A DNA stretch of 64,000 nt, from the IMG/VR virus record IMGVR_UViG_3300029288_001872, positions 1 to 64,000 of that record, one strand, 5' to 3'. The position numbers and the translations under genes were made by a program. A model generated the notes under the pieces. It saw only the letters and a list, made by a program, of their open reading frames with translations. It had not been told where the DNA came from and did not search any database. Each line of letters opens with the position of its first letter. Position 1 is the stretch's first letter. Positions 2 through 40,458 of the stretch are shown here, one piece after another. This DNA comes from a virus (Duplodnaviria > Caudoviricetes).

Positions 2-1105
2 AATAAAGGACCGAGAGAAAAGTACATAAAATACTTAATTGAAAATGGAGTGGGGGTCTTTGTAGGCGGAACTAGAAAAGAAGAAACAACTATGCAATAT
101 GCTGATACACTTAGAAAATCTCAAATAGTCATTAATTTTTCACCTTTAGGTCAATATGGTTGCCCGTTGAAAGGAAGGTCTTTTGAAGCGATATGGTGTG
201 GTTCTTTATTGATGGAGCCATCTGGTTCTTTTCTTGAATATCATTTTACACCGTATTCTGATTATGTCCCATATGATAATGAAAATGATTTGTTGAATAA
301 GGTCAGATATTTTAGTGCAAACAAAGAAGAAAGAGAATTGATTGCAAATAGGGGATATGAAAGAGCTATTCAAAAATATAATCCATTTTCATTTTGGAAT
401 AAAATATTTAATGACTATTTGATTCCATACGACTTGAATCTTGATATGCAGAATATTCGTGGATTATTGGATTTCTTTATCTCTAAAAAGAAAGAAGTAT
501 TTTGCAATGATTTTGTTTTCATCAAAGAAATTTCATATTTGATTGAAAATTTAAACATCAAAGAATTTTGGGAAACTGGAAGTTATTTAGGTCATTCGTC
601 TGATTTCATAAAAAGTTTATTTCCGAAACTGGATGTATTCAGTTGTGACATTCATGAAGGTTATCTTGAAACAGCAAGAAATAATTGTCCTCTAGTTGAT
701 TATAAATTGATTGATTCTGTCAATTTTCTGAAAGAAAGAATTGATAATTATTCTGTTCCAACTTTTGTTTTCTTGGATGCACATGGACATGGTGGTGGTT
801 TGCCATTAGAAAAAGAATTGCAATTGATAGGAAATTCTGGTAAAGAATTTATAGTTTGTATTCATGATTGTAAAATTTCAGGAAGAAATATTTTTGGTTG
901 GGATTCTTATGATGGGATAGACATAAGCACTGATTTGATAACTAATATTTTAGACAAAACCAAATGTGAATTTGATATTTTTATACCAAGTCAACTATAT
1001 TGTCATAGTCCATTACGAGGAAGATGTTATGTTATAATCAACAGTGATAAAATCCATTATAGCAAAATGATTAGTGAATTATTTACTTCCCTAGAGGAGT
1101 TGTAA
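2..1105 (+). CDS. 5'-truncated glycosyltransferase (GT-B, CgeB/YkvP-like C-terminal domain) fused to a class I SAM methyltransferase-like domain
   Basis: Frame is open from nt 2. GT part has 'SQIVINF...KGRSFEAIWCGSLL...EERELIANRGY'; MTase part has 'ETGSYLGHS' and 'FLDAH'. Confidence 0.7.
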   Translation, partial: NKGPREKYIKYLIENGVGVFVGGTRKEETTMQYADTLRKSQIVINFSPLGQYGCPLKGRSFEAIWCGSLLMEPSGSFLEYHFTPYSDYVPYDNENDLLNKVRYFSANKEERELIANRGYERAIQKYNPFSFWNKIFNDYLIPYDLNLDMQNIRGLLDFFISKKKEVFCNDFVFIKEISYLIENLNIKEFWETGSYLGHSSDFIKSLFPKLDVFSCDIHEGYLETARNNCPLVDYKLIDSVNFLKERIDNYSVPTFVFLDAHGHGGGLPLEKELQLIGNSGKEFIVCIHDCKISGRNIFGWDSYDGIDISTDLITNILDKTKCEFDIFIPSQLYCHSPLRGRCYVIINSDKIHYSKMISELFTSLEEL

Positions 1106-1115
1106 TAAAAGTTGT

Positions 1116-1197
1116 GGTCTGGTTGGGTATGGTCAGGTGAGGTTGGGTAGGGTCTGGTCCGGTAAGGTAGGGTCCGGTAAGGTGTGGTAAGGTGAGG
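1116..1197 (+). repeat. (GGTNN)16 pentamer-phased G-rich tract
   Basis: 16 consecutive GGTNN units at 1116-1195 plus a terminal GG; intergenic, with stops in all three + frames. Confidence 0.95.
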
Positions 1198-1236
1198 GTG
1201 CTAATCCTTTAACTAATTTCACTAAAGGATTAGCAC
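1198..1236 (+). terminator. Perfect 14-bp hairpin directly after the pentamer tract
   Basis: GTGCTAATCCTTTA / TAAAGGATTAGCAC with an 11-nt loop, followed by AATTTTT. Confidence 0.65.
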
Positions 1237-1273
1237 AATTTTTAAAAAACTTATTCTTAAATAAAGGGAAAAC

Positions 1274-2260
1274 ATGAAAACAAAAATCGCCATATTTATT
1301 CCAACGTGCAATAGACCAGAGTTTTTACACAGAGCATTATTATATTATAATAGCAAATCTGAATTCTTACAAGATGTAATCTTCCATATTTATGATGGTT
1401 CTGATAAAACATCTTATAATCTAAATAAAAAAGAAGTTAAAAAATATAAAAATCTGAATATAAATCATGTATGGTTTGAAAATCAGAAGGATGAATTCAA
1501 CAGGTTTGTAGAATCTACTAAAAACATTCAAGAAGAGTATATTTTACAAGTAGGTGATGATGATTTCATAATTGTTGAAAGTCTTAAACCAGCACAGATA
1601 TTTTTAGATTCAAATAAAGACTATGCTGCTTGTAGTGGTTTGAGAATGTCTTTTGTGTTAGAAAATCCTGACGAAAAACAAACCAAAGGAACCAATTTAC
1701 ACATAACAAGGTCTGTGCCAGGACCATATTGGCCTATTAATGATCCAATAGGTTGTTTCAGGTCATATATGAGAAGTGGAATTCCAATGCAGCATTTTCT
1801 TGTTAGAAACGAAGTATATAAAAAAATGTATGCTCATTTGGAAAAAGAAGAATTTAAAACACCATTACTATCCCAAGATTTGCTTCCTTGCGCGATTCTG
1901 TCTTTAAGTGGCAATATCAAAAGATTGGATTTTGTTGTTTCATTTGCGCGCCAAGAAAGCAACTTGTCTACATATAAATATTTAGACGAGATAATGACTG
2001 ATGATAGTTTTTCTAATAACCTTGTGTTGACTAAAGAATTATTAGTAGATAAGATTAAAGATTTTGTAGGATTGGATGAAGCAAAAAAGATAGTTGATAG
2101 CGAATTTGTAATAAGATTTATTCAATTGCTAGAATGGACTAGAGATGTGAAATATAAACCGCAAGGAAGGTATCCATTAGAAGGGCATGATTTTATCCCT
2201 TCTACACAAGCCTATTATCACAATATAATTAAAGAATTATTTCAATTGTGCAAGAGGTAA
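1274..2260 (+). CDS. GT-A fold glycosyltransferase (TIGR04440-like)
   Basis: 'IPTCNRPEFLHRALLYY', 'DGSD', 'GDDDF' (DxD). Confidence 0.8.
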   Translation: MKTKIAIFIPTCNRPEFLHRALLYYNSKSEFLQDVIFHIYDGSDKTSYNLNKKEVKKYKNLNINHVWFENQKDEFNRFVESTKNIQEEYILQVGDDDFIIVESLKPAQIFLDSNKDYAACSGLRMSFVLENPDEKQTKGTNLHITRSVPGPYWPINDPIGCFRSYMRSGIPMQHFLVRNEVYKKMYAHLEKEEFKTPLLSQDLLPCAILSLSGNIKRLDFVVSFARQESNLSTYKYLDEIMTDDSFSNNLVLTKELLVDKIKDFVGLDEAKKIVDSEFVIRFIQLLEWTRDVKYKPQGRYPLEGHDFIPSTQAYYHNIIKELFQLCKR

Positions 2261-2266
2261 TTTATT

Positions 2267-3622
2267 TTGTTAAATGTATTACTAATAAATCCACAAACGC
2301 CTAATTATATATCCAACAAAGAATATATAATGCCACCTTCTTTGTTGCATCTATCTCATCATTTGCAATCTACCATGACTGCAAATGTAGATATATTGGA
2401 TTACAATACTTGGAAAGCAGCGCCTTTACATTCCATAGATAATTTTGATGAATATGATTATGTTGGAATAACAAATCTTTTTTCTGGACATTTTCAATCT
2501 ACAATGGAAATTGCCAAAACAATTAAAGAAAAAAGTCCAAAAACAAAAATTGTTGTTGGTGGAATACACCCAACTATTTTTCATAAAGATATTATAGACA
2601 ATTGTGAATTTATAGATTATGTTATCATAGGTGAGGGAGAATATTCATTTAGAAAATTATTAACAAATGAGTCCACTGATGGTATTTGTTATAGAGTTGG
2701 AAAGAAAACTTTTGTAGAACCAAAAACTTGTTTCATAGAAGATATTAATACTGTGGCACCACCAATATTGGGTTATCAAAGTATTGATTTTAATGATTAT
2801 GCTTATAGCAGAAATGCTTGGTACAATCCAAAAGGTTTTGATTTATCACATTCAGTTGAAGTGCCAATTTTAACTAGTAGAAGTTGCCCAAATAGGTGTA
2901 ATTTTTGTTCCATGTTTTTAGTGATGGGTCCAAAAATTAGATTGAGAAATCCATATATAGTAGTTAATGAAATAGAATGGCTGTATAAAGAATATGGTGT
3001 TAAAATGTTCACAGTGATGGATGATAATGTGACATTAGTTAAATCTCATATCAAAACGATATGTAAAGAAATAATAAAACGAAAATTGGACATATCTTGG
3101 CAGACACCAAATGGACTGATGATAAGAACATTGACGCCAGATATAATTGATTTGATGTCAGAATCAGGATGGTATCGTTCAATGATTGCTATTGAGTCTG
3201 GCAATGATTATATTAGAAATGAAGTGATGAGCAAAAAGGTATCTAAAGAAAAAATTTATGAAGTGGTGGAATATATAAAGAAAAAACATAGTCATGTGTA
3301 TCTACGTGGTCTATATATTATGGGAATGGCTGAAGATGATGGGGCAACGCTGCAAGATTCATTGGACATGATAGAGAACTTACAGACTGATACTGACAGC
3401 GTTGCGAATATTATGTCATTTCCAAAGACTAAAGTATTTGAACAAGCAGTTAGAGATAATTTATTTTTTGAAGATGTAAATATTGGCAATTTGTGGTGTG
3501 AGAAAAGAATGGACTACAACGACAATAAAAAGTTTATAATAAAACCCTATAAAATGACTTTAGAAGAATTAAAAGATTGGAGGGTTAAATTTGATACCGC
3601 AATTGAAAATAAAAGCAAATGA
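2267..3622 (+). CDS. Cobalamin-binding radical SAM protein (class B methyltransferase-like)
   Basis: B12-domain motifs 'VVGGIHPT' and 'GEGE'; CxxxCxxC in 'SRSCPNRCNFC'; 'IESG'. Confidence 0.9.
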   Translation: MLNVLLINPQTPNYISNKEYIMPPSLLHLSHHLQSTMTANVDILDYNTWKAAPLHSIDNFDEYDYVGITNLFSGHFQSTMEIAKTIKEKSPKTKIVVGGIHPTIFHKDIIDNCEFIDYVIIGEGEYSFRKLLTNESTDGICYRVGKKTFVEPKTCFIEDINTVAPPILGYQSIDFNDYAYSRNAWYNPKGFDLSHSVEVPILTSRSCPNRCNFCSMFLVMGPKIRLRNPYIVVNEIEWLYKEYGVKMFTVMDDNVTLVKSHIKTICKEIIKRKLDISWQTPNGLMIRTLTPDIIDLMSESGWYRSMIAIESGNDYIRNEVMSKKVSKEKIYEVVEYIKKKHSHVYLRGLYIMGMAEDDGATLQDSLDMIENLQTDTDSVANIMSFPKTKVFEQAVRDNLFFEDVNIGNLWCEKRMDYNDNKKFIIKPYKMTLEELKDWRVKFDTAIENKSK

Positions 3623-4319
3623 AGTTAGAAGAAAAGTTCTTGAAAATTGCTATAAATATAAAAATAGCCATTTATCGTCATGTTTATCCGCCGTGGACAT
3701 TATTTCAACGCTATACTTTGGCGGATTTATTGGGAAAGGAATTGGGAAGTTTGTGTTGAGCAAAGGCCATGCTAATGAAACATTATCAACAGTATTGGAA
3801 ATGATGGGGGTTCAAAGGGTTATACATAGTGACCACCCTGAATTTGGGAATCCTGGAATTGAAACAACAACAGGTTCATTGGGACAAGGGCTTGGAATAG
3901 CTTGCGGAATGGCTTTGAGTAATAAATTGAATAATTCTAATGAGATAATCTATTGTCTCATTGGTGACGGAGAAATGATGGAAGGTCTCAGCCAAGAAGC
4001 CATCCATTCTATTTATGATTTAGATTTACCTATTAAAGTATTGATAGATAAGAATTGGTATGCTTCTGAAAGACAACCAAGTTCTTTGTTATTTGAGACT
4101 GTATTTGAAACATTAGTAAATGGGCATGATGTAGAAGAAACATACAATGCCTTACAAACAGATGAAAAAGTAATTGTGTGTGAAACTACAAAATGTTTTG
4201 GACTTCATAGAGTACATGATATAAATATAATAAATTGGGATATGATACATTATCTTTGTGTTAATGATGACAACATAGAAAGATTTAGGAAGGAATTGAA
4301 TGACTACTCAGAGAGATAG
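3591..4319 (+). CDS. Split transketolase, N-terminal ThDP-binding subunit
   Basis: 'HLSSCLS', 'SKGHA', 'TGSLGQGLG', 'GDGE' ThDP motif. Confidence 0.9.
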   Translation: MIPQLKIKANEVRRKVLENCYKYKNSHLSSCLSAVDIISTLYFGGFIGKGIGKFVLSKGHANETLSTVLEMMGVQRVIHSDHPEFGNPGIETTTGSLGQGLGIACGMALSNKLNNSNEIIYCLIGDGEMMEGLSQEAIHSIYDLDLPIKVLIDKNWYASERQPSSLLFETVFETLVNGHDVEETYNALQTDEKVIVCETTKCFGLHRVHDINIINWDMIHYLCVNDDNIERFRKELNDYSER

Positions 4320-5154
4320 ATTTTTTAATACCATTGGCAATGCGTATAAAAATGGTCGCGAAGATTTGATTATCCTAACTTGCGACATGGGCGCGGCTGC
4401 ATTAAACCAGTTTAAGAAAGATAAAAATTTTCTTCTCAACTTAGGGCCTGTTGAGCAACTAGGCGCTTGTATGTCAGCCGGTTTAGCCTTGCAAGGTAAA
4501 AAACCATATTTATACGGCATTGTTCCTTTTATAACAGGTAGGTGTTTGGAACAAATAATGGTAAGTATTTGTTCACAGAATTTGCCGGTTACTATTGTTG
4601 GAAGTGGCGCAGCTTTGTCCTACGATCTTGCCGGAGCAACTCATCATGGACTATGTGATTTAGGACTAATGCGCTGCATCCCAAATATGACCATAGCAAA
4701 TATTTCCACTCTTGAAATGGCAGAATATTATGCGAATTATTCATTAGAATGTGAAACACCACTATATATTAGATTAGATAAATATAAAGACAATGGTGTT
4801 TTACCAAACGAAGAAGGTTTTTTTTATTATAGAATACCTTCTAATAATTATCCTATAGTAATAACTACAGGAGCTATTACAAACTATTTAAAATCTATGC
4901 TTCCGTTAGATTTTGGGTTAATGGAAATATATAATTTCCCTTGTAAAGAAAACAATCTACTTGCTTGTATAGCACAATCTCCTTGGTATAATAAACTTAT
5001 ATCTGTTGAAGAAAGTTATAAAATTGGAGGACTTGGAGATTATCTGTTTTCTTTAGGTTTAAATGTAACCAAGATTGGTTTTGACAATTTCTGTGAAGCT
5101 AAACCAAGAGAAGAATACTGGAAATATTTACTAAGAGAGGTATTAAATGCTTAA
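4300..5154 (+). CDS. Split transketolase, C-terminal (pyrimidine-binding) subunit
   Basis: 'GPVEQ', 'GLALQG', 'GATHH', 'YIRLDK', 'VEE...GGLG'; overlaps the N-terminal subunit. Confidence 0.9.
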   Translation: MTTQRDRFFNTIGNAYKNGREDLIILTCDMGAAALNQFKKDKNFLLNLGPVEQLGACMSAGLALQGKKPYLYGIVPFITGRCLEQIMVSICSQNLPVTIVGSGAALSYDLAGATHHGLCDLGLMRCIPNMTIANISTLEMAEYYANYSLECETPLYIRLDKYKDNGVLPNEEGFFYYRIPSNNYPIVITTGAITNYLKSMLPLDFGLMEIYNFPCKENNLLACIAQSPWYNKLISVEESYKIGGLGDYLFSLGLNVTKIGFDNFCEAKPREEYWKYLLREVLNA

Positions 5155-5482
5155 AGATAAAAATAGTTATAATAAAATGATCGAAGGAGAAATAGAAAAA
5201 TTAAATTCTATAATAAGAGATAATAACTTAACTTGTTCTTGTATGTTCTCTACAAATTCAGAATGTAGAAAATGTAAATTAATAGACAAGATTATTAAAT
5301 TGCAGGGAAGTTTATTATGAAATCAAAATTCACTAAATGGAATTGGATGTTGGCCTATGCTACTTCTAAGAGAGCACAAGCCATAGCAAAAGATATGGGA
5401 GTTAGCGACAAACTATTTATAGAACCTATAAATCTTGATGAATTATTGCCAAAAGAATTTATGAAGTTAAAAAGGAAAAAAA

Positions 5483-7129
5483 ATGCTTAAAGACATCACA
5501 CTCTATATTCCTACATATAATAGGAGTCAATTTCTTAATCGTTCATTAAAATATTATTCAACTGTCAAATTCGATGGTACAATTCTTATTGGTGATAGTA
5601 GCAACAAAGAAGAAAAAAAATTAAATAAAGAAGTAATAAATAAATATCCAGATTTGAATATTAATTATCACCATTTGAAACTTCCATCTGACCACCATGA
5701 TGCAGTAAAAACATACAGACTTTTGGATAAAATTAAAACACCTTATATAACTTTTGCTGGCGATGATGATTTTCAAATACCTAATGGCCTTAAAATGTGT
5801 ACTGAATTCCTCGATTATTCACCAGATTATGTTGCAGCACATGGCCATAGATTGAATTTTACAATAGATGATACAGTAAATGGAAATGTCATAGCCTTGG
5901 ATTCTCATCCTGGATATGATTGGACCAATGAAGATGACCCAATTAAAAGATGGCAAGAATATTTAAGATGTGGAGTAGCTACTACATATTATGTCCATAG
6001 AACAGAAAATTGGAAAAAGTATTATTCCTATTCACATCTGGCTAAAAGCAATTATATCGGCAATGAATTAATCCCATGTTCTTTATGTGTTTTGTCTGGT
6101 AAAATTAAAAGAATCGAATGTTTGTCTACTGCTTTTCAAAGAGATAATCCCATAAGGTCTTTCTCTTTTGTCAAAACTACTTTATGGGATTTGATTAATG
6201 GAGAATATTGGAGAGATTCTGTCAAGTTTTTTGAAGAAGCAGTTACGTCTATATTGTCTGATAAATTTGAAGTTAAACAAATTAAAGAATTATTTTATCA
6301 AGAATTTTGGTATCACTGTCTATTGATTATGAATGGGCAATTTAATAGTAGATATGGTGAGAAAAAAGATGAACCAACTACACGAATTTTAGACTTATCT
6401 ACTATGAGTGAAGATGATGATTTCTATCCAATATATCAAGTTTTGATAGAAAATTCCAATGCTGAAATACTTAGTAATTATTTGAAGAAGATACAAAAAT
6501 TGGATATAAGAGAAGGCTCAACAAATGATGATTTTATGACTTTAATAAACTTAGCTAAATCTGTGGAAAGACCAGGGATGCAAGCGGTGGAAGTCGGGTC
6601 TTGGAAAGGCGCAACTGGTGGAGCAATAGGACAAGTGCTCAAGGAAAATGACGGAAAGTTGTTTTGTTGTGATCCGTGGGCAAATGCGACTTGCAATGCA
6701 GACCATTCAGATATATTAGAGATATTTAAAAAGAATATTTCTGAATTAGAGTTGGAAGATAATGTTGTTATCATAAGAGAGCAGTCAATAGATGCATATA
6801 AACATTTTGAAGATGAATCTCTTGATATTGTATTTCTAGATGGATTGCATATGTACAATTATATTGCTCCAGACATAATTTACTTTTACCCTAAAGTTAA
6901 AAAAGGCGGGATAATTGCTGGACATGACTTAAATATACGATATGAAACTCTCAATTCAGAACAACAAAAAGAAGTTGATGAAAATATAAATGTTAATTGT
7001 GTTACCGTTAAATCATTAGGAAGACAAGTTCATTGCGGGGTTTGCAAAGCAGTTTATGACTACTTCGGAAGTAATTATAATTCTTTTGACAATCCAATGA
7101 ACGCAGTTTGGTGGGTGGTTAAAGAGTAA
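5483..7129 (+). CDS. TIGR04440-like glycosyltransferase fused to a C-terminal class I SAM methyltransferase (Methyltransf_24-like)
   Basis: 'IPTYNRSQFLNRSLKYY', 'GDDDF'; C-terminal 'EVGSWKG', 'FLDGLH', 'GGIIAGHD'. Confidence 0.85.
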   Translation: MLKDITLYIPTYNRSQFLNRSLKYYSTVKFDGTILIGDSSNKEEKKLNKEVINKYPDLNINYHHLKLPSDHHDAVKTYRLLDKIKTPYITFAGDDDFQIPNGLKMCTEFLDYSPDYVAAHGHRLNFTIDDTVNGNVIALDSHPGYDWTNEDDPIKRWQEYLRCGVATTYYVHRTENWKKYYSYSHLAKSNYIGNELIPCSLCVLSGKIKRIECLSTAFQRDNPIRSFSFVKTTLWDLINGEYWRDSVKFFEEAVTSILSDKFEVKQIKELFYQEFWYHCLLIMNGQFNSRYGEKKDEPTTRILDLSTMSEDDDFYPIYQVLIENSNAEILSNYLKKIQKLDIREGSTNDDFMTLINLAKSVERPGMQAVEVGSWKGATGGAIGQVLKENDGKLFCCDPWANATCNADHSDILEIFKKNISELELEDNVVIIREQSIDAYKHFEDESLDIVFLDGLHMYNYIAPDIIYFYPKVKKGGIIAGHDLNIRYETLNSEQQKEVDENINVNCVTVKSLGRQVHCGVCKAVYDYFGSNYNSFDNPMNAVWWVVKE

Positions 7130-7340
7130 ATGAATACTTATATATTTTTTAAAGAATTACATAGATATATATTTAATGAAAAGTGTGATGAAAAGATTCC
7201 ATGTGAAGATTGTAATTATGAGCAATCTTGTTTCTATCCCAATTGTTTGAGAAAATATAGCAAGGAACATATTTTAGAAATAATTAAAGTTGTATATAGT
7301 TTATAAAAATTATTTTTACTCTATTAAAAAGGAATTATTA

Positions 7341-8726
7341 ATGATTGATTTCTTATTTGTCAAACCAAATAATTTAAAAGTATTGTATGGAGAAACTAAT
7401 AAATTTAAACAAGTGGCTTATGAACCTCCATTCTGGCCTTTGCTTCTTGCTTCATTTCTCACAAGACAAAATATTCCATCTAAAATTATAGATTTAGAAG
7501 TTCAAAACATTGATTCTTTGAATCATACATTACTACATGATAATCCTAAATTTACAGTAATTTGTGTTAGTGGTCATAATCCAAACGCTAGCATCATGAA
7601 TATGGTTGGGTTAGATGACTTATGCAAAAGCGTAAAAGATGTTTGTCCAACTACTAAAATCATACTTCACGGTTTATATCCATCATCTTGTCCAACAAAA
7701 GTTTTAGAAAAACATAAATTAGTAGATGAGATTCTAATGAAGGAAGGTTTTTTAAATCTAGGTCGTTTAATGGGTTATAAAAGAACAGACCAAATACCAA
7801 TAAACGATATAGGAATAATAAATTGGTCTTTAATAGACATCACAAAATATCGTGCTCACAATTGGCATTTGTTCGGAAATATTCATAATAGAAGTCCATA
7901 TGGAATTGCTTTCACTTCTTTTGGTTGTCCTCATAATTGTGATTTTTGTTGTGTAAATTTAATGTATAGCAAAGTACAATTAAGAGATATAAATTTGGTA
8001 TTTCAAGATATTAAAAGTCTATATGATAAGGGTGTAAAAAATTTTAAGTTCATGGATGAGTTGTTTTTAATGCATAAGGGTAGGGTACAACAATTATGTT
8101 CTATGTTAATTGCTAATAAAATGAATGATATAAACGCTTGGGCTTATGCTAGGACAGATTCTATAGATGAAGATATAATTACATTAATGAAAAATGCTGG
8201 CGTGAAATGGTTAGGAATAGGTTATGAGAGTGGTTCTCAATTAATATTAGATTCTTCTGATAAAAAACAAAGTTTAAAAAAAGCGTATCAAGCAACAGAA
8301 ATTTGCAAAAAGGTTGGGATGAATATTTGTGGTAATTTTGTGTTTGGGTTGGCAGATGATGACTATAAGACAATGGAAGAAACATTGAAATTGTCTATCG
8401 ACTTACAACCAGAATGGGCTAATTATAATGTGGTTTTTGCTTTTCCTGGGACGAAGTTATATGATAAGGTGAAAAATGAGCCTTGGTTTAATGAACCAAC
8501 TGAGTATGAGCAGTATTCTCAACATGGCTATTCTTGTACGCCGATGGGGACAAAATATCTTAGCCCAAAAGCGGTCTTGGAATTTAAGGATGAAGCCTTT
8601 AGGAAATTTTACCAGAATGAGAATTATTTGAGGATGCTGGAGGCAAAATTTGGGGTTGAAACCAGAGAATATGTAGCAAATTCATTAATTTACTACCCAA
8701 AAAGAAAACTTTATGATTTAGCCTAA
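7341..8726 (+). CDS. Second cobalamin-binding radical SAM protein
   Basis: 'SFGCPHNCDFC', 'GYESG'; start moved to ATG 7341 behind AAGGA. Confidence 0.85.
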   Translation: MIDFLFVKPNNLKVLYGETNKFKQVAYEPPFWPLLLASFLTRQNIPSKIIDLEVQNIDSLNHTLLHDNPKFTVICVSGHNPNASIMNMVGLDDLCKSVKDVCPTTKIILHGLYPSSCPTKVLEKHKLVDEILMKEGFLNLGRLMGYKRTDQIPINDIGIINWSLIDITKYRAHNWHLFGNIHNRSPYGIAFTSFGCPHNCDFCCVNLMYSKVQLRDINLVFQDIKSLYDKGVKNFKFMDELFLMHKGRVQQLCSMLIANKMNDINAWAYARTDSIDEDIITLMKNAGVKWLGIGYESGSQLILDSSDKKQSLKKAYQATEICKKVGMNICGNFVFGLADDDYKTMEETLKLSIDLQPEWANYNVVFAFPGTKLYDKVKNEPWFNEPTEYEQYSQHGYSCTPMGTKYLSPKAVLEFKDEAFRKFYQNENYLRMLEAKFGVETREYVANSLIYYPKRKLYDLA

Positions 8727-8732
8727 AGAGAC

Positions 8733-8761
8733 TTGCTGACCAAGAAATTTTGAAGTATAAT
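8733..8761 (+). promoter_or_regulatory. Sigma70-like promoter
   Basis: TTGCTG-N17-TATAAT upstream of the 8780 ORF. Confidence 0.55.
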
Positions 8762-8779
8762 TGAAGAAGGAGAAGAAAT

Positions 8780-9481
8780 TTGGCTAAGAAAACTAAATCC
8801 AAGAAACCTAAAGGCATCACTATAGAAGAATTCTTAAAAAACCTTAACACTCTAGATTTGTTGGACGGGAATTTTTCTGATAATGATGCTTTAGCTCTTA
8901 TGAAGTTAGCTAAAGAAAGCGTTAAAGACCAAAGAACTTTTGTTACATTTTTGGAAATGGGAGCATGGAAGGGAAAATCTACTGCTTGTCTTAGTGTTGT
9001 AGTTAGTAAATTTTTAGAGGGGAAAATTTATGTAATTGATCATTTTCAAGGAGCACCAGAGACTACTAGTGAACAGGTAGCAAAGACAAGTGATGTTCAT
9101 AATATATTTAAAAATAATATGAAAACAATTAATGCTTGGGACAAAGTTGTTCATTTAATAGAAATGGGAATTGAAAATGCTTCATGTGTTCTACAAGACA
9201 ATACATTTGATTTTATTTTTATAGATACAGATAATAGATATAAAATTTATAAAGAACATATTCAATATGCTGTAGAATTTCTTAGAATAGGCGGGACGGT
9301 TTGTGGAAGAAATTTAGTTGCAAATTATCTAGAAGTCAAAAATGAAGTTGATGAAGAAATAGATAAAGAATATTCACAAAAATATAAATTACATCCCGGT
9401 GTTATTAAAGCGGTCTTTGAAGTTTTTGGAAATGATTATAAAAGAGTTGAAGATAGTGGTTTGTGGTATTGGAGGAAATAA
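8780..9481 (+). CDS. Class I SAM methyltransferase (Methyltransf_24-like)
   Basis: 'EMGAWKGKST', 'IDHF', 'FDFIFID'; paralogous to the C-terminal domain of 5483-7129. Confidence 0.8.
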   Translation: MAKKTKSKKPKGITIEEFLKNLNTLDLLDGNFSDNDALALMKLAKESVKDQRTFVTFLEMGAWKGKSTACLSVVVSKFLEGKIYVIDHFQGAPETTSEQVAKTSDVHNIFKNNMKTINAWDKVVHLIEMGIENASCVLQDNTFDFIFIDTDNRYKIYKEHIQYAVEFLRIGGTVCGRNLVANYLEVKNEVDEEIDKEYSQKYKLHPGVIKAVFEVFGNDYKRVEDSGLWYWRK

Positions 9482-10043: not shown

Positions 10044-11021
10044 ATGAGGGGTCCAGATAAAAAACCAAGAAAGAAAAGAAGTCCAAATAAAGTTTCTCAT
10101 CAAAATAAACAAAAATTAAATTGTGATATTTGTGGAAAGGAAATTTATAGATGGCCAACGCAAATAAAAAGTGAAAAAGTATTCTGTTCTTGGAAATGTG
10201 CAAATGGAAGAAAAGATAGAGAATCAATAAAAGTATCAGATTTATCTATTTTGTTAGAAGAAAAATTAGAAAGTTATTACTGGATTGGTTATTTGATGGC
10301 AGATGGACATTTCCAAAATAGAGGACAAATAGCTTTAGTTTCTATAGATATAGAACATCTTGAAAAATTTACTGGCTTTGTAAAATATGAAGGCGAAAGA
10401 AAAAATAAAGGAAATATTTCTTTAATGGATAAAGTTGTTGTTAAAAGATTAATGAATAAATTTAATATTTCACATAGAAAAACTTATGAACCTTGTGATA
10501 TTAATATTTCAAATTTAGATTTGTTTGTTTCTTTGGTTATTGGCTTTATAGATGGAGATGGTAGTATTAGAAAACAAACAAATAGGAATGATTGTTTAAT
10601 AGCCATAAAATGTCACAGTTCTTGGTTTGAAAATTTAAAAATAATGAATAGAATTATGAGTGAGATAATAAATATTAATGAAGCAGATGTGGTTAGAATC
10701 AATAAAAAAGGCTATGCTTTATTAATATGGTCAAACAGTAAAGTATTGCGCTTTTTAAAAGAATTCATACTTGCTACTAATCTTCCTGTATTAAAACGTA
10801 AGTGGAATAAAATCGATGAAGGTTTTATTAGTGGACAAGAACTTGCTGCTCAAAGAGTGGGTAGAGTTAAAGAATTATTAGACAAGGATTATAACAAAAG
10901 TGAAATTGCAGAAATTTTAGGTGTTAATAAAAGTGCAGTGACTCTTATTATTCAAAGAAATAAAATTCCTGCTTATATTGGCAGAAAAGAAAGGAGGGAA
11001 AATTATGTCAGTCTTTTTTAG
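10044..11021 (+). CDS. Free-standing LAGLIDADG homing endonuclease with N-terminal Zn motif and C-terminal HTH
   Basis: Two LAGLIDADG helices ('WIGYLMADG', 'IGFIDGDG'); 'SEIAEILGV' HTH. Confidence 0.85.
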   Translation: MRGPDKKPRKKRSPNKVSHQNKQKLNCDICGKEIYRWPTQIKSEKVFCSWKCANGRKDRESIKVSDLSILLEEKLESYYWIGYLMADGHFQNRGQIALVSIDIEHLEKFTGFVKYEGERKNKGNISLMDKVVVKRLMNKFNISHRKTYEPCDINISNLDLFVSLVIGFIDGDGSIRKQTNRNDCLIAIKCHSSWFENLKIMNRIMSEIININEADVVRINKKGYALLIWSNSKVLRFLKEFILATNLPVLKRKWNKIDEGFISGQELAAQRVGRVKELLDKDYNKSEIAEILGVNKSAVTLIIQRNKIPAYIGRKERRENYVSLF

Positions 11022-11553
11022 TGCAGATTGGCATCTTTGACTTAAACATCGAAATATTATCAAGTATTGTAATCGTCCATTTTCATCTATTGAAGAAATG
11101 GACAAAACTATTCTTGATAATTTCTTTTCTACAGTTAAAAAAGGAGATACTTTTTATTTCTTAGGCGATTTAACATTTGATAGAAACTTTTTTGAAAAGT
11201 TTCTACAAGATTGCCATGCTAATAAAATTAATCTTCATTTAATTAGAGGTAATCATGACAAAATTCCATATAATCTGACATCAACTTTTAATATTCCAGT
11301 CTATGATTTAAAAACAGTTAAAATTGAGGATAAAATTGTTGTATTATGTCACTATGCTATGAAGGTTTGGGATCGCTCGCACCATGGTTCGATTTGTCTC
11401 CATGGGCACTCACACGGAACCCTTGAAAGTCAAGGACTGTCATACGATGTGGGAATCGACAATAACAACTTTATGCCAGTTTCTTTTGAAAAAATTAAAA
11501 AAATAATGAAAGACAAACAACAATATTTTGCAGATTATCATGGCAGGAAATAA
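11005..11553 (+). CDS. Calcineurin-like metallophosphoesterase interrupted by an in-frame TGA at 11038-11040
   Basis: AGGAGG RBS, then MSVFFSADWHL*LKHRNIIKYCNRPF in frame with 'LGD', 'GNHD', 'CHY', 'HGHSH'. Confidence 0.8.
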
Positions 11554-12071: not shown

Positions 12072-12148
12072 GGTCTGGTTAGGTCAGGTGAGGTGAGGTA
12101 AGGTTGGGTGGGGTGCGGCAAGGTATGGTAGGGTGTGGGAAGGTAAGG
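12072..12148 (+). repeat. Second pentamer-phased tract, (GGNNN)15, mostly GGTNN
   Basis: 15 units at 12072-12146 (13 GGTNN, one GGCAA, one GGGAA) plus a terminal GG. Confidence 0.95.
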
Positions 12149-35368: not shown

Positions 35369-35899
35369 TTATTCATTAGGGGTGTCTTTTTCTCTGTCTT
35401 TGGCATACCATCTTATGTCTTGTCGTTTTGCAGGAACACCCCAGACCATAGTATCTGGTGCAACATCCCGAGTACAGACCGCGCCAGCGCCTATCGTCGC
35501 GTTGCGACCCACGGTGATTCCAGGAAGAAGGATAGCTCCCGCACCAATTGTGGCTCCGTCCTCAATGATTGTTACAGAAAATTGGCCTTTTCGATCAGCC
35601 TTCGGTTTTTTAACATTACACACCACCACACGTGGACCTAAAAAAACTGAATCACCAACAATAGTAGAATCAAAAAGTTGCACTCCATTTTGAATACGAC
35701 AGAATTTGCCAATTCGAGTATTGCCAGAAACATAGCAGTGTTCAGCAATCATCGTTCCTTCTCCGACCACTGCGCCGGGAAGGATGTGGGTCCAAGCAAA
35801 AACTTTTACCCCATTCCCTAGTGAACAACCCGACTCAACATAACTTTTAGGATGAATAAAAATTGGCGGTGAATTTTTCAAAGGGTCTTTACTATCCAT
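35369..35899 (-). CDS. Hexapeptide-repeat sugar N-acetyltransferase (WbpD/WlbB-like)
   Basis: Left-handed beta-helix repeats; 'RIQNGV', 'VFLGP', 'GATIGAGA', 'WGVPA'. Confidence 0.85.
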   Translation of the reverse strand: MDSKDPLKNSPPIFIHPKSYVESGCSLGNGVKVFAWTHILPGAVVGEGTMIAEHCYVSGNTRIGKFCRIQNGVQLFDSTIVGDSVFLGPRVVVCNVKKPKADRKGQFSVTIIEDGATIGAGAILLPGITVGRNATIGAGAVCTRDVAPDTMVWGVPAKRQDIRWYAKDREKDTPNE

Positions 35900-36869
35900 A
35901 AATTACTTCTCCTTCTGGAGTATTGTGATATTTTTCGTTTTCATATATTTCTTTTATTGCAGAAACAGAACGCTCAACATTTTTAGGCGAAATAGAATTT
36001 ACTTCAATAAATCTATCTCTCATTCCACAAACCATTTCTATTGCTATTCTATTTTCTTCTATCCCATATCCTTCGCCAGCGAGAATTTTCTTGTACATAT
36101 TTGTGTGAAGTTCAGTAAACCCTTTATCAAGATTCAAAGTATATTCATCACCGATACTTAAACACCTATTTGGAATTCCTTCTATTAGATCATTTTTATC
36201 TGTAGATAAAAACCATTCCACATAAGCATTTTCTAAATCAATATAACCACTCGCCTTTGTTTCTGTAAGTGAAGATACTGAAGCCATTTTCCAATGACCA
36301 AATGTATAATTCATTATATCAAAAGCATGAATAGCAAGATTTAGGAGTATTCCACCACTTTTGTTAATATCAGATTTCCAAGATTTTCCGTACCAATCAC
36401 CTCTTGGAACCACATAGCGAAGATTGACTTTATATCGTTCTTTGTTACTTAATTTGATTATTTCTCTTAATCTATTTATTTCTTTGTGTAATCTTAATTG
36501 AAGAATTGAGAATACTTTTTTCCCAGTTTCTTTTTCTATTCTAATCAAATCATCTAAGTCAGATGGAAATAAACAAAGAGGTTTTTCACATATTACATTT
36601 ATATTATTTCTAAGTCCGAATTCAATGTGTTGTTTGTGCATATGATTTGGAGATATGACAGTCAGCCAATCAATTTTATTTTCTTTACAACACTCTTGAA
36701 AATCTAAATCATTCATAAAAAATTTACACTCATTGAACCAAGAATCGAGATGGCCAACTATATCATTTTTACTCAAGACCGCAATCAATTCTCCATTAAC
36801 ATCAGAGATGGCTTTTAAGTGTTTATGGCTTACATATCCACACCCTACCATTGCAAATTTTGGTTTCAT
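35892..36869 (-). CDS. Gfo/Idh/MocA NAD-dependent sugar-nucleotide 3-dehydrogenase (WbpB/WlbA-like)
   Basis: 'VGCGYV..KHLKAI', 'SPNHMH', 'CEKP', 'LQLRLH', 'SWK...KSGG', 'GFTELH'. Confidence 0.85.
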   Translation of the reverse strand: MKPKFAMVGCGYVSHKHLKAISDVNGELIAVLSKNDIVGHLDSWFNECKFFMNDLDFQECCKENKIDWLTVISPNHMHKQHIEFGLRNNINVICEKPLCLFPSDLDDLIRIEKETGKKVFSILQLRLHKEINRLREIIKLSNKERYKVNLRYVVPRGDWYGKSWKSDINKSGGILLNLAIHAFDIMNYTFGHWKMASVSSLTETKASGYIDLENAYVEWFLSTDKNDLIEGIPNRCLSIGDEYTLNLDKGFTELHTNMYKKILAGEGYGIEENRIAIEMVCGMRDRFIEVNSISPKNVERSVSAIKEIYENEKYHNTPEGEVIYG

Positions 36870-36879
36870 TCATTCACCT

Positions 36880-37041
36880 TTATTTCTTCTTTGTTTTAGT
36901 TTTAGTTTTAGTCTTTTTCACTTTTACTGCACCAGAATGTAACTCTGATTTTAGTTTCTTTTGTTGTTCACTAGTCAACGGGCTTACTTTTGATAAAAGG
37001 TAGCGCGTCTGTTTCAATGATTTAGTTTTAGTTTTTGCCAT
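36880..37041 (-). CDS. Lys/Thr-rich 53-aa protein (not in the ORF track)
   Basis: Manual translation MAKTKTKSLKQTRYLLSKVSPL...KKTKTKTKTKKK. Confidence 0.55.
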   Translation of the reverse strand: MAKTKTKSLKQTRYLLSKVSPLTSEQQKKLKSELHSGAVKVKKTKTKTKTKKK

Positions 37042-37426
37042 AATTAAATTAACCTTTTAATTCAAACCAATTAGCTTCTGAGCCACAACCTTTATTTCTT
37101 AATTCTTCACAAGAGTCTTTTGGCAACCCTCTTACTTTTCCTTTATTTTTTATGTGAGAACAGAAATCTGAATATACTTCTTCTGGTTCTTCTTCTATAT
37201 TACTTTCTTCTAAGTAAAACTTACAATCAATACATAATTTAATTTCATCCATTTTTATATTCCTCCAATTCCTTTTCCAATCTTTTATTCTTGTTCTTCA
37301 AAACTGTATATTGCGAATTGCACTTTATCTGAAACAATTCGTTTTCCAATTCTTCCACTCTCTCTTCCAATTCCAGAAGTCTATTGACGATCTGGTCTTG
37401 GGTGAGAGGGTGTAGTTTGATTAGTT

Positions 37427-38545
37427 TCATTGACATTTCTTTCTTCTCATATCTACTTTCCTGCAACCAATTTCACTATGTGCCAATTCATGACATGGTA
37501 CACAAAGCGTGATGCAGTTATCTAGATCAGCAGATTCAATAGGGTTTAATTCAATACCTTCAAAATGATGACAATGAAGAGAAACTTTAGTTTTCTCACA
37601 TCGTTGACATTGATATGAATCTCTAGCAAAAACCATTTGTCTTAATTCAGGTTGCACTTCGCGATTAAGAGGAACTGTTCCATTCATCTGATTCAAATAA
37701 CCATTTTCTGTCTTTTTGTAACTAGGACAAACATTTTGACATAATTTTGAACAATATAAATTGTGTTCATAAATATCTTTTCCATTTATAAAATCTATTC
37801 TACCACAGACTTGACTCCTAGTAGGAATAAACATTTTTCCGCAATATTTGCAAATACATTCGAGAATAGCTGGATTTTCTCTATTTCTCTTAACCTTCTC
37901 ACCAACACTCAATAATGTCGCTGCATATGTATCATAACTAGCCACTTGTTTATTTTTTGAAAGACCATGTGTAGTAGTAACTTTGCTTGCTCTCTCTAAT
38001 GCTAGACATCCACAAGACTTAGTATGACCGTAAAATAATCTTGAACTTAATATTTCTTTTGTTTTTCCACAATCACATTGACAATTCCAATACCAATAAC
38101 CAAATTTATTTTGCTTTGTTTTTGATATAGCAACAAGTCTATCAAATCTTTTATTGGTCAAATCGTATTGTTCTTTTCTTTGAATACACCCACAAGATTT
38201 AGTTTTACCATTCCATACTTTATTTCCTTTTATTTCTTTCACAGAACCACAATCACACTTAAACATCCAATACCAATCATTGTCTTTCCCCATCTTTGTT
38301 CTATATAAAGCAGTTAATCTATTAAATTTTTGTCCAGTAACATCTTTGAATTTATCATAATATTGTCTTGCACATTGTCTACTACAACAACCTTCAATTT
38401 TCTTTGCTGGAAAAACAAGACAATCTTCACCACAATTGAAACATTTTATTTTTCTATATAAACTTTTTCTAGTTGAATGTTGATATCTAAAAATATCACT
38501 ATTAATCCACTCTCCTTTTGAGAGAACTTCTTCAGTTATCTTCAT
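37427..38545 (-). CDS. HNH homing endonuclease with duplicated 'W.C.CDCG...KSCGC' domains
   Basis: 'RDSYQCQRC...HCHH...NCITLC..CH'. Confidence 0.85.
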   Translation of the reverse strand: MKITEEVLSKGEWINSDIFRYQHSTRKSLYRKIKCFNCGEDCLVFPAKKIEGCCSRQCARQYYDKFKDVTGQKFNRLTALYRTKMGKDNDWYWMFKCDCGSVKEIKGNKVWNGKTKSCGCIQRKEQYDLTNKRFDRLVAISKTKQNKFGYWYWNCQCDCGKTKEILSSRLFYGHTKSCGCLALERASKVTTTHGLSKNKQVASYDTYAATLLSVGEKVKRNRENPAILECICKYCGKMFIPTRSQVCGRIDFINGKDIYEHNLYCSKLCQNVCPSYKKTENGYLNQMNGTVPLNREVQPELRQMVFARDSYQCQRCEKTKVSLHCHHFEGIELNPIESADLDNCITLCVPCHELAHSEIGCRKVDMRRKKCQ

Positions 38546-39766
38546 TTATATTGCTACCTTGTAGATATCAAGACTGTTTTTTATAACGTTTTTATCATCA
38601 TTTTTAAAATTAATATCTTCTATCAAACAAGACAATCCCATCCCATTTAAATTAGTTCTAAGTTCTTGCATGATATCAGCAGGTGCAGTAGCCAATTGCG
38701 GTTTAATAGCATTTAATGCGTTTACTCCCTCGTTCAACGCGGCAACGCTTAAGCGGTAGGTCTGGAGGAGTAGAGAATCTTCGCGAAGACTGAAAAAAAA
38801 TTGCCCTCCGCGTTTTTCTGGTGACTGTGACATCTCCCTGTATCCTCTAATAAATCGCCGTGCTCCATCTGCCATTATAGAAAGGTTGTTATTTGCTGCA
38901 CCCCAATCACTTAATGCATATGCCAAATCGGGGTCATAAGGGTTTTCTTTCAATGCTTCGATATTCAATTTATATGCTTCTTCCATTCTATTTTTTTCAT
39001 ATAAAGACTTTATGATCGTAAAAAAAATCGTGGCATTAAATTTCGTTGGATCAATTTTATCCTTCAAACTAATATACCATTTGCCATACTTTATCGATTC
39101 TTCCGTATAACCATGATGTCCAAGAAGCTGGGAGAGGTAAAATAAGGTATCTTTTCTAGTTGGATTCCCTTCCTCATCCAAATCTTCCATCTCTTTCATC
39201 AGCAAACCATGAGTTCTTTCAAACTTCAATCGCATTTTTTCTTCAGACAAATCATATCCATAATGCTCTATTTCAAGCATATCACAAAGAACTGCTGCAC
39301 CTTCAAATATAGGCGAGTTATGAATTCTGTGTTTATATTCTACTTTGCCTTTCTTAAATAATCTAGCGCTATTGCAAGACATTACTGTTTGACCTTGCTG
39401 CATGTCTCTAATTGGAATGGCAACAACATTATATTTGTCTTGTACCATTTCCAACCATTTCTTTAGTTTCTTTATAGAAAAGTCTTTTGACGGAACAATT
39501 TTTTCGTCAGCATCGATTATGAGTATAAAGTCCGCGCCATTCTCTTCAGCATATTTTATTGATTCGTTCCTATGATGTGAAAAATTATCCTGCCAAGGGG
39601 AATGATATAGTTTTACATTATCGAATGATTCTAGAATAGAAATTGTTCGATCAACACTGCCGGTGTCTACACATATGACCTCATCAACGATTCCTTTCAA
39701 GGAGTTTAGGCTTTGGGTTATAAATCTCTCTTCGTCCCGAACCATAAGACACGCTGTAATTTTCAT
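38546..39766 (-). CDS. GT2 glycosyltransferase with helical/TPR-like C-terminus (protein-glycosyltransferase architecture)
   Basis: 'MVRDEE', 'DTGSVD', 'WQDNFS..RN', 'DADE', 'RIHN', 'HYGY'. Confidence 0.85.
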   Translation of the reverse strand: MKITACLMVRDEERFITQSLNSLKGIVDEVICVDTGSVDRTISILESFDNVKLYHSPWQDNFSHHRNESIKYAEENGADFILIIDADEKIVPSKDFSIKKLKKWLEMVQDKYNVVAIPIRDMQQGQTVMSCNSARLFKKGKVEYKHRIHNSPIFEGAAVLCDMLEIEHYGYDLSEEKMRLKFERTHGLLMKEMEDLDEEGNPTRKDTLFYLSQLLGHHGYTEESIKYGKWYISLKDKIDPTKFNATIFFTIIKSLYEKNRMEEAYKLNIEALKENPYDPDLAYALSDWGAANNNLSIMADGARRFIRGYREMSQSPEKRGGQFFFSLREDSLLLQTYRLSVAALNEGVNALNAIKPQLATAPADIMQELRTNLNGMGLSCLIEDINFKNDDKNVIKNSLDIYKVAI

Positions 39767-40458
39767 AACACCTCATTTAAATACCGATAATTATATTTTT
39801 GATTTAAAATCAATTGATATAGTGCTTTCCAAGTATTTCTCTTTTTGTTTGCTCTAGAATTACAAGATGTACAAATTGAGATCAAATTATTAGGATGACA
39901 ATTTTTCTTGTCATAATCGACATGGTGTGCTGCTAATCTTTTTGAATTGTTTTTACAAGAAGGGTTTAAACATTTATAGCCATCCCTCTCTTTTATTTCG
40001 TCTCTATATTCTTTGGTCCACAGACAACAATAAGATTCAGTTGAAGTTCCACCCTTCCAATTATGGTTGTTAGGGCCACTTATTTTTAATATGGTCTCTT
40101 CGCTAAGTGGACCTTTCTTTATGCCCAATTGAGATTCAGAAATTTTTATTCTTGTTTCTTGTGTTACTTCATGTCCTAAATGTGCTTCACTCTTCTTCTT
40201 TTTGGTTTCTTCTGAATCTTTTTTCCCTTTTATTTTTTTACTATGATTAAGACACCATTCTAAAGAACTATTTCTATCTTTGGTACTACACCCACGAGAA
40301 CAATAACTCCCATTATTCTCTGGAAGATTAAGACATAATACTCCACAATATTTACATTTATTAATCTTGTATCTTCTATATTGGATACCACAATGATAAA
40401 TAATTGTATAATCATCAATCCATTTACAATTATCAAATATTTCTTGGGTTAATTTCAT
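39763..40458 (-). CDS. HNH endonuclease with NUMOD3 repeats
   Basis: 'SEETKKK', 'NWKGG', 'RDGYKC', 'HHVDYDK.N...NLISIC'. Confidence 0.85.
   Translation of the reverse strand: MKLTQEIFDNCKWIDDYTIIYHCGIQYRRYKINKCKYCGVLCLNLPENNGSYCSRGCSTKDRNSSLEWCLNHSKKIKGKKDSEETKKKKSEAHLGHEVTQETRIKISESQLGIKKGPLSEETILKISGPNNHNWKGGTSTESYCCLWTKEYRDEIKERDGYKCLNPSCKNNSKRLAAHHVDYDKKNCHPNNLISICTSCNSRANKKRNTWKALYQLILNQKYNYRYLNEVL

Follow-up and report, generated by a model that had tools for sequence, protein, structure and literature searches.

The left end of the 64,000-nucleotide window analysed here, the first 64 kb of the 189,632 bp IMG/VR record IMGVR_UViG_3300029288_001872 from a phage of the Caudoviricetes, carries a cluster of genes predicted to act in the synthesis of a glycan. 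Within the window the cluster spans positions 2-9481 with all of its genes on the plus strand, and a sequence-only reading of this stretch had described it as a phage-encoded pathway for an unusual, heavily methylated sugar that runs on past the left edge. The cluster was indeed found to continue. About 132 nt at the start of the record are repeated at its end with 98% identity, which indicates a circular or terminally redundant assembly, and because the two ends overlap, the missing left flank sits at the far end of the record (genome 184085-189498). In a sister phage, IMGVR_UViG_3300014204_000113 (187,988 bp, with direct terminal repeats and rated 100% complete), the sequence is unbroken across the point at which our record is cut. 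Flank and window part together form a cluster of 14.9 kb in one orientation (Table 1). The three glycosyltransferase domains reported from the window (one GT-B and two TIGR04440), the split transketolase and the three co-oriented class I S-adenosylmethionine (SAM) methyltransferase domains are all present, and the flank, whose retrieval had been proposed, adds HddA-like, HddC-like, 6VO6-like and RmlC-like genes and a third TIGR04440 transferase.

Table 1. Features of the glycan cluster. Coordinates are those of the window unless marked as genome; ORF, open reading frame; SDR, short-chain dehydrogenase/reductase; ThDP, thiamine diphosphate; aa, amino acids.
Feature	Coordinates	Strand	Basis or remark
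SDR dehydrogenase, 6VO6-like	genome 184085-185023	same orientation as cluster	full-length alignment to PDB 6VO6
Nucleotidyltransferase, HddC-like	genome 185206-185892	same orientation	NCBIfam
RmlC-like cupin	genome 185849-186352	same orientation	PF00908, E = 7e-26
GHMP kinase, HddA-like	genome 186548-187528	same orientation	NCBIfam, PDB
Third TIGR04440 transferase	genome 187716-188735	same orientation as cluster	above curated cut-off
GT-B and class I SAM methyltransferase fusion, 538 aa	starts genome 188987; window 2-1105 is the C-terminal 367 aa	+	Pfam, fold searches
TIGR04440 GT-A glycosyltransferase, 328 aa	1274-2260	+	116 bits against cut-off 70; GDDDF
B12-binding radical SAM enzyme 1, 451 aa, putative C-methyltransferase	2267-3622	+	B12-binding E = 7e-16; Radical_SAM E = 7e-16
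Split transketolase, N-terminal (ThDP/PP) subunit	3591-4319	+	Transketolase_N, E = 1e-13
Split transketolase, pyrimidine-binding subunit	4300-5154	+	Transket_pyr, E = 2e-13
Two 57-aa ORFs	5147-5490	+	no family match; probably outside the pathway
TIGR04440 glycosyltransferase and Methyltransf_24 fusion, 548 aa	5483-7129	+	162 bits against cut-off 70; Methyltransf_24 E = 5e-19
Cys-rich ORF, 58 aa	7130-7306	+	overlaps start of second radical SAM gene; 69% in sister phage
Radical SAM enzyme 2, 478 aa, divergent B12-like N-terminal domain	7290-8726	+	Radical_SAM E = 2e-16; B12-binding E = 0.034 (weak)
Stand-alone class I methyltransferase, 233 aa	8780-9481	+	Methyltransf_24, Pfam E = 1e-11
(GGYNN)n arrays followed by a hairpin	1116-1195, 12072-12136; genome 136845-136924
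(GGYNN)n arrays followed by a hairpin	genome 185027-185091, 186370-186464, 187584-187658, 188736-188913

The upstream end of the cluster resembles a pathway for an activated heptose. The SDR can be aligned over its whole length with PDB entry 6VO6 (E = 2.4e-72, against 1.6e-19 for the next SDR) and retains intact GxxGxxG and YxxxK motifs; 6VO6 we take to be Cj1427, the guanosine diphosphate (GDP)-heptose C4 dehydrogenase of Campylobacter jejuni. For the kinase, the best NCBIfam match is NF049969 (HddA; E = 3e-36, 126 bits against a cut-off of 600) and the top four PDB matches are all heptose kinases (3K85, WcbL in 4USK and 4USM, and 4N3O; E = 1e-27 to 1e-31), and its kinship to these enzymes is clear at the level of the family. 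The nucleotidyltransferase is closest to HddC (E = 4e-23, 82 bits against a cut-off of 300), with mannose-1-phosphate guanylyltransferase second, and the cupin matches RmlC and the GDP-4-keto-heptose 3,5-epimerases 7M14 and 8DB5 (at about E = 1e-11) in the PDB. These four genes fit a GDP-heptose pathway and thereby agree with the "higher-carbon" sugar that had been suggested. A search of the whole phage for SIS_2 (the GmhA isomerase type) returned no match, and only one Epimerase-family SDR is present, from which it follows that the phage encodes no C4 reductase. A HAD/NT5C-type phosphatase gene at genome 181365-181928 is a possible stand-in for GmhB.

The 538-aa fusion is read in a frame that is unbroken across the record ends and is a single ORF in the sister phage (L010:7407-9017). 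A first model of the whole protein was poor (predicted local distance difference test score, pLDDT, of 50), and its domains were settled by a fold search with the confidently modelled C-terminal region and by a new model of the GT part, which place a GT-B domain at residues ~1-310 and a methyltransferase at ~333-538. The part of the GT-B domain that falls within the window is recognised by Pfam as Glyco_trans_1_2 (E = 1.6e-14). Modelled on the sister phage homologue (37 sequences, pLDDT 92), the domain resembles GT4-type GT-B enzymes over its full length, including PimA (Z = 21.7), sucrose-phosphate synthase (20.3) and HepE (20.3; Foldseek E = 9e-11). Its likeness to the T4 alpha- and beta-glucosyltransferases (Z = 19.3 and 17.7) is no better than that to many other GT-B enzymes, and the fold is about equally near to transferases acting on lipid (PimA), small molecules (BshA, MshA), protein (GtfA, SdgB, Gtf3) and DNA (T4). 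Pfam recognised no methyltransferase domain in the C-terminus of the fusion. A fold search with these ~200 residues nevertheless gave a class I SAM methyltransferase for each of the 50 best matches (Z = 8.3-10.1), including CmcI and two that act on sugar oxygens, CalS11 and SpnH, and motif I reads ETGSYLGHS; a profile comparison with the free methyltransferase of the cluster was not significant (E = 0.34).

The remaining three transferases are TIGR04440 proteins scoring 116-164 bits against a curated cut-off of 70, each with an intact GDDDF motif of the GT-A DxD type that is invariant in the alignment of TIGR04440-like sequences. No match above the cut-off was found in any of 14 control genomes. 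Three of the four transferases are fused to, or followed by, a methyltransferase or radical SAM gene, an arrangement that suggests stepwise assembly in which each addition is decorated. Transmembrane segments were found in none of the cluster proteins.

Both proteins that had been called B12-radical SAM enzymes contain a Radical_SAM domain and a CX3CX2C motif, at residue 207 (CPNRCNFC) in enzyme 1 and at residue 213 in enzyme 2; the B12-binding part of that description holds clearly for enzyme 1 and weakly for enzyme 2. Enzyme 1 has 657 homologues, and among anaerobic bacteria those with 40-48% identity are frequent. The best NCBIfam matches of enzyme 2 are HpnJ and BchE, and these, like the P-methyltransferase that leads the matches of enzyme 1, lie far under their cut-offs; the class B radical SAM family also holds enzymes that are not methylases. 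The P-methyltransferase match raised the possibility of a phosphonate pathway, which was ruled out by the absence of a phosphoenolpyruvate mutase from the phage. With three class I methyltransferase domains and two radical SAM enzymes of the B12 class, the product would be an unusual and probably heavily methylated sugar, much as first proposed. The 58-aa protein encoded just ahead of enzyme 2 contains five Cys residues; it may bind metal and act as a small partner of enzyme 2.

The two transketolase genes overlap each other, and the best solved matches of their products are chains of split transketolases (6YAK chain A for the N-terminal subunit and 6YAJ chain C for the pyrimidine subunit). 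In an alignment with 6YAK/6YAJ and human transketolase, the SH, KGHA, HPE, GDGE...DKN, VEQ (with the activating Glu) and GATHH motifs are all retained. The Ser-rich substrate-phosphate loop of 6YAJ (DADLSKS) is replaced by DMGAAA in the phage pyrimidine subunit, the later Arg of the 6YAJ RLGR segment is a Lys, and Transketolase_C (PF02780) was not detected by Pfam in the phage protein; this domain is present in the homologue from a Chitinispirillaceae operon (L041) described below. The retained cofactor and catalytic residues would fit a role either in tailoring of the sugar or in supply of its precursor.

The small ORFs that had been noted between the genes exist and differ in their conservation. 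The pair of 57-aa ORFs is absent from the sister phage and the Cys-rich ORF is kept there. A LAGLIDADG homing endonuclease gene with a helix-turn-helix tail lies to the right of the cluster (window 10044-11021), just upstream of a metallophosphoesterase gene (11098-11553), and the sister phage sequence runs uninterrupted across its insertion point. Since both the 57-aa pair and the LAGLIDADG gene are missing from the sister phage, they are taken as recent insertions. Of the nine (GGYNN)n arrays in the genome with seven units or more, eight are located in the gaps of the cluster or beside it. The sister phage has arrays at some of these junctions only, with genes abutting where the studied phage has gaps. 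When the arrays were decoded as dinucleotides with a one-base skip and searched for in the phage and its relatives, the outcome was one weak match, in the sister cupin gene.

The cluster is a resident part of the phage genome. The sister phage carries the entire cluster in collinear order and well inside its record (about 112-128 kb), with protein identities of 54-94%. No tyrosine integrase was found in the phage. The GC content of the cluster is 31.7% (34.1% for the genome), its tetranucleotide distance falls inside the normal range of windows of the same size, and its codon usage correlates with r = 0.95. A host chromosomal arm, a prophage or an assembly chimera is ruled out by the internal sister copy together with the missing integrase and the ordinary composition, and the claim that the pathway is phage-encoded is upheld on the same grounds.

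The cluster is also conserved across the capsid lineage of this phage. Homologues of the major capsid protein (window 45131-46105; Pfam GP7) are encoded by the sister phage, at 74% identity, and by IMGVR_UViG_3300027902_000006 (140 kb, 92% complete), at 63%. In the latter relative a divergent cluster of its own lies at ~56.7-69.3 kb, its gene order broadly similar and its flanks homologous to the corresponding arm of the studied phage. Identities are 45% for the SDR, 30% for the nucleotidyltransferase, 41% for the kinase, 50% for the stand-alone methyltransferase, 27-32% for GT-B, 34% for the transketolase, 30% for TIGR04440 and 35% for a radical SAM enzyme of the second type. The cupin is absent, and the radical SAM type that is kept is that of enzyme 2. 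This 140-kb genome also has an extra, lone TIGR04440-like gene ~20 kb from its cluster, between conserved replication-arm genes. A version of the cluster is thus found in all three near-complete genomes of the capsid type, which answers the suggestion that co-occurrence of the two be examined. Three genome fragments (L098, L105 and L111) carry further variants; in L098, for instance, one TIGR04440 gene and the gene for radical SAM enzyme 1 are missing. The phage dehydrogenases group together in a maximum-likelihood tree with 97/98 support, and the kinase tree agrees weakly. The divergent cluster in the 63%-capsid relative and the single group of phage dehydrogenases support long residence, as had been supposed, with diversification in the phage lineage.

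Bacterial counterparts were sought in a metagenome scan seeded with TIGR04440-like transferases, in which 28 non-phage loci of at least 10 kb were counted and neighbours within 10 kb considered. A 6VO6-like SDR or HddA-like kinase is present in 11 of these loci and a related radical SAM gene in 10, while the split transketolase and a homologue of the GT-B protein each occur in 5. The radical SAM gene adjoins the transketolase pair in four loci (L166, L152, L149 and L077), as it does in the phage. The Chitinispirillaceae operon L041 runs in the order SDR, nucleotidyltransferase, GHMP kinase, N-terminal transketolase, C-terminal transketolase and DegT aminotransferase, and the opposite strand carries several methyltransferase genes, one of them fused to GT2, along with a gene for a B12 radical SAM enzyme. 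No TIGR04440 match above the cut-off was found in the bacterial genomes that carry the heptose-transketolase operon. Pfam tallies of the neighbouring ORFs (141 + 146) yielded SDRs, DegT, NeuB (8), Epimerase_2 (8) and CTP_transf_3 (6), together with SIS_2, HAD, ABC2_membrane and ABC_tran genes; phage hallmark families were not among the top families. The bacterial counterparts are ordinary surface-glycan loci with genes for UDP-GlcNAc (uridine diphosphate N-acetylglucosamine) 2-epimerase, CMP (cytidine monophosphate)-sugar cytidylyltransferase and ABC transporters. Within them, the combination of TIGR04440, B12 radical SAM, split transketolase and GDP-heptose genes, which recurs across diverse metagenomes, is apparently an uncharacterised bacterial module. 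The enzyme mix had been called typical of bacterial loci and not of phage modules: its bacterial likeness is borne out, but versions of it are present on at least five related contigs from phages.

Taken together, the cluster may encode a self-contained, phage-borne pathway, with enzymes predicted to be soluble, for a modified and methylated heptose glycan that we would tentatively assign to the virion. The host would provide sedoheptulose-7-phosphate and, given the lack of a SIS gene in the phage, the GmhA isomerase too; the GmhB phosphatase would probably also come from the host. The HddA-like and HddC-like enzymes are of types that would yield an activated seven-carbon sugar of the GDP-heptose kind; this could then be oxidised at C4 by the 6VO6-like (Cj1427-like) dehydrogenase and epimerised at C3 and/or C5 by the RmlC-like cupin. 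Activation, oxidation and epimerisation are proposed on the basis of strong family-level matches and of the published pathway to the C. jejuni capsule heptose, which uses GmhA, HddA, GmhB, HddC, the C4-dehydrogenase Cj1427, the C3/C5-epimerase Cj1430 and the C4-reductase Cj1428 (PMC10680097). Both systems have an HddA-like kinase, an HddC-like nucleotidyltransferase, a 6VO6-like dehydrogenase and an RmlC-type cupin in one cluster, and in both the sugars are (or would be) afterwards methylated and transferred by dedicated glycosyltransferases. The version described here differs in being phage-borne, in lacking GmhA and the C4 reductase, and in its two B12-class radical SAM enzymes, split transketolase and TIGR04440 transferases, all of which are absent from PMC10680097.

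With no C4 reductase in the phage, either reduction of the 4-keto sugar would fall to the host or the sugar would be used by the radical SAM enzyme and split transketolase, with the transketolase-like ThDP enzyme adding a C2 unit and the radical SAM enzyme a C-methyl group. The oligosaccharide would be built by the three TIGR04440 GT-A transferases and the one GT-B transferase, and the fused and neighbouring class I methyltransferases would O-methylate it as it grows. The nucleotide, the order of the steps, the radical SAM and transketolase chemistry and the acceptor are the parts of this scheme that we infer. The lack of a C4 reductase, together with the several loci in which radical SAM and transketolase genes lie side by side, leads us to favour tailoring (C2 addition and C-methylation) over a plain supply of sedoheptulose-7-phosphate. 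That the transketolase only raises this supply for heptose synthesis, with the radical SAM enzymes acting separately, would alter one step of the scheme and is a possibility we take seriously without adopting it. The conserved His residues, GDG...N metal site, activating Glu and GATHH motif suit ordinary ketose-donor chemistry, the transketolase pair of L041 comes directly after the kinase in a precursor operon, and sedoheptulose-7-phosphate is the entry metabolite of the pathway (PMC10680097). It sits less easily with the adjacency of the transketolase pair to a B12 radical SAM gene in the phage and in four unrelated bacterial loci, with the loss of the Ser-rich phosphate loop, with the undetected Transketolase_C domain, or with a 4-keto sugar that would be left without an assigned consumer.

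As the acceptor we give a slight and tentative preference to the phage's own virion proteins. In favour of this are the absence of an integrase and of transmembrane segments, the retention of a version of the cluster in the three near-complete genomes, and the presence of GT2 and GFO/IDH/MocA oxidoreductase genes among the head genes. Several points weigh against the proposal, some of them against the acceptor and others against the pathway itself. The cluster lies in the arm of replication and nucleotide-metabolism genes and not beside the structural genes, the GT-B fold does not single out a class of acceptor, and the bacterial counterparts are cell-surface loci with ABC transporters, which would fit an acceptor in the host envelope equally well. 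The phage has no GmhA, GmhB or C4 reductase of its own, the transketolase might do no more than increase the supply of sedoheptulose-7-phosphate, and the equation of 6VO6 with Cj1427 is our own assumption. Neither HddA nor HddC is matched at its NCBIfam equivalog cut-off, and on that account the substrate and nucleotide count as what we infer. It had further been argued that the lack of a flippase or membrane enzyme favours a cytoplasmic acceptor. This argument does not survive the finding that the bacterial counterparts adjoin ABC-2 transporter genes: glycans that depend on ABC transporters are built wholly by cytoplasmic enzymes, and the lack of transmembrane segments is for this reason non-discriminating.

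The same pathway could instead serve a glycan of the host envelope (lipopolysaccharide O-antigen, capsule, S-layer or flagellin glycan), with the enzymes working at the cytoplasmic face and a host ABC transporter exporting the altered product; such a change to the surface could block superinfection by sibling phages or stop progeny from sticking to debris. We regard this as only a little less likely than a virion acceptor, and much of the genomic context is in keeping with it: the homologous modules reside in surface-glycan loci with ABC2_membrane, ABC_tran, nonulosonic-acid, SIS_2 and HAD genes, where soluble or peripheral transferases like those of the cluster are usual, the cluster shares its arm and orientation with the replication and nucleotide-metabolism genes, and the phage appears to invest heavily in competition between phages, the (GGYNN)n arrays being concentrated in and next to the cluster. 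Bacteria that use GDP-heptose for oligo-heptose glycans on proteins include Aneurinibacillus thermoaerophilus, in its S-layer glycosylation, and Ca. Kuenenia stuttgartiensis, with its oligo-heptosidic glycans (bioRxiv 10.1101/2020.12.03.409086); there, as in the bacterial loci that resemble the cluster, nonulosonic-acid genes or sugars stand alongside. Against a host acceptor, the missing integrase means that this would not be classical lysogenic conversion, and remodelling of the surface is only briefly useful to a lytic phage. It would also require a host acceptor that stays constant as capsid identity within the phage lineage falls to 63%, and the cluster encodes no initiating phosphoglycosyltransferase, ligase or transporter. 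A glycan on the phage DNA, in the manner of the heptose on 5-hydroxymethylcytosine (5hmC), appears very improbable. Phage clusters do install mono- and di-heptose on 5hmC (bioRxiv 10.1101/2023.12.21.572611), and these share with our cluster the activation of sugars, heptose among them, and GT-B transferases; all of the enzymes found here are cytoplasmic, and the GT-B domain resembles those of T4, if no more closely than it does many others. The 5hmC clusters are accompanied by a cytosine methylase and TET-type dioxygenase or by a thymidylate-synthase homologue, and activate heptose with a HAD/APH-like enzyme and a cytidylyltransferase rather than with HddA- and HddC-like enzymes (bioRxiv 10.1101/2023.12.21.572611). 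The sequence-only reading had listed DNA hypermodification among its options and advised a search for such entry enzymes. Thymidylate synthase/hydroxymethylase (PF00303) and C5 cytosine methylase (PF00145) had no match in the whole phage in searches whose positive controls worked, and TET/JBP (PF12851) likewise had none, a weaker negative in that its controls were silent. With no hydroxymethylase, TET or C5-methylase gene found, a DNA acceptor is unlikely; four transferases and extensive C- and O-methylation also exceed any described DNA glycan, and the bacterial homologues belong to surface-glycan loci.

Other genes of the phage bear on sugars or surfaces. A second sugar module is found among the head genes on the minus strand (window 35892-39766), comprising a GFO/IDH/MocA oxidoreductase gene (35892-36869) and a GT2 gene (38546-39766), interleaved with genes for an HNH protein (37427-38545) and an endonuclease VII-like protein (39763-40458). 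Also on the minus strand in the structural arm, a 489-aa protein (window 40664-42133) contains a GDSL-type lipase/esterase domain (E = 2e-10); it may be an esterase that the virion carries and that attacks glycans of the host surface. In the arm that precedes the cluster (genome 170003-183000) are genes for a ribonucleotide reductase with a TSCPD domain, a GIY-YIG/NUMOD3 endonuclease, an RF-1-domain protein, an SMC/AAA protein and a Thg1-like protein (182280-182981). The 64-kb window contains no tRNA genes.

A megablast search of window positions 1-25000 against GenBank phages gave no match, and a tblastn search of the same phages with the fusion that joins TIGR04440 to Methyltransf_24 matched the methyltransferase half and not the TIGR04440 domain. 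The literature searched contained no mention of TIGR04440 and nothing that combined transketolase, radical SAM, glycosyltransferase and heptose, and a search of it for glycosylated phage virions gave no hits with the terms used. Virus-encoded glycan pathways borrowed from bacterial surface-glycan loci are already known; what is new is the size of the cluster, the predicted heptose chemistry and the proposed tailoring by radical SAM enzymes and transketolase.

Phages are known for single glycosyltransferases, short sugar-nucleotide modules and DNA-glycosylation cassettes. The conserved pathway of ~15 kb is far larger, extending from activation, oxidation and epimerisation through radical SAM, ThDP and methyltransferase tailoring to four transferases. 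Giant viruses encode glycan machinery for their capsids, as in the transferase-transferase-methyltransferase fusion A064R of chlorovirus PBCV-1 and the fibril clusters of Mimivirus. Like the phage, they have cytoplasmic transferase-methyltransferase fusions and nucleotide-sugar enzymes of their own, and their products, like those predicted for the phage, are methylated sugars; they differ in having eukaryotic hosts and glycans of hexose, deoxyhexose and aminosugar, with no heptose, radical SAM enzyme or transketolase known to be involved. If virion proteins are the acceptor, the cluster would be the equivalent, in a virus of prokaryotes, of the coats of glycan that giant viruses make. A bolder version of this, which we consider speculative and on balance unlikely, is that the conserved trio of TIGR04440 transferase, B12 radical SAM enzyme and split transketolase carries out an undescribed chemistry, ThDP-dependent C2 addition and radical C-methylation on GDP-4-keto-heptose, to give a branched or extended, methylated higher-carbon sugar that the phage uses on its own virion; it would then be a bacteriophage largely self-sufficient for a complex glycan coat. 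If instead the product is destined for the host surface, the cluster would be a large receptor-remodelling weapon in a phage already heavily armed against its siblings.

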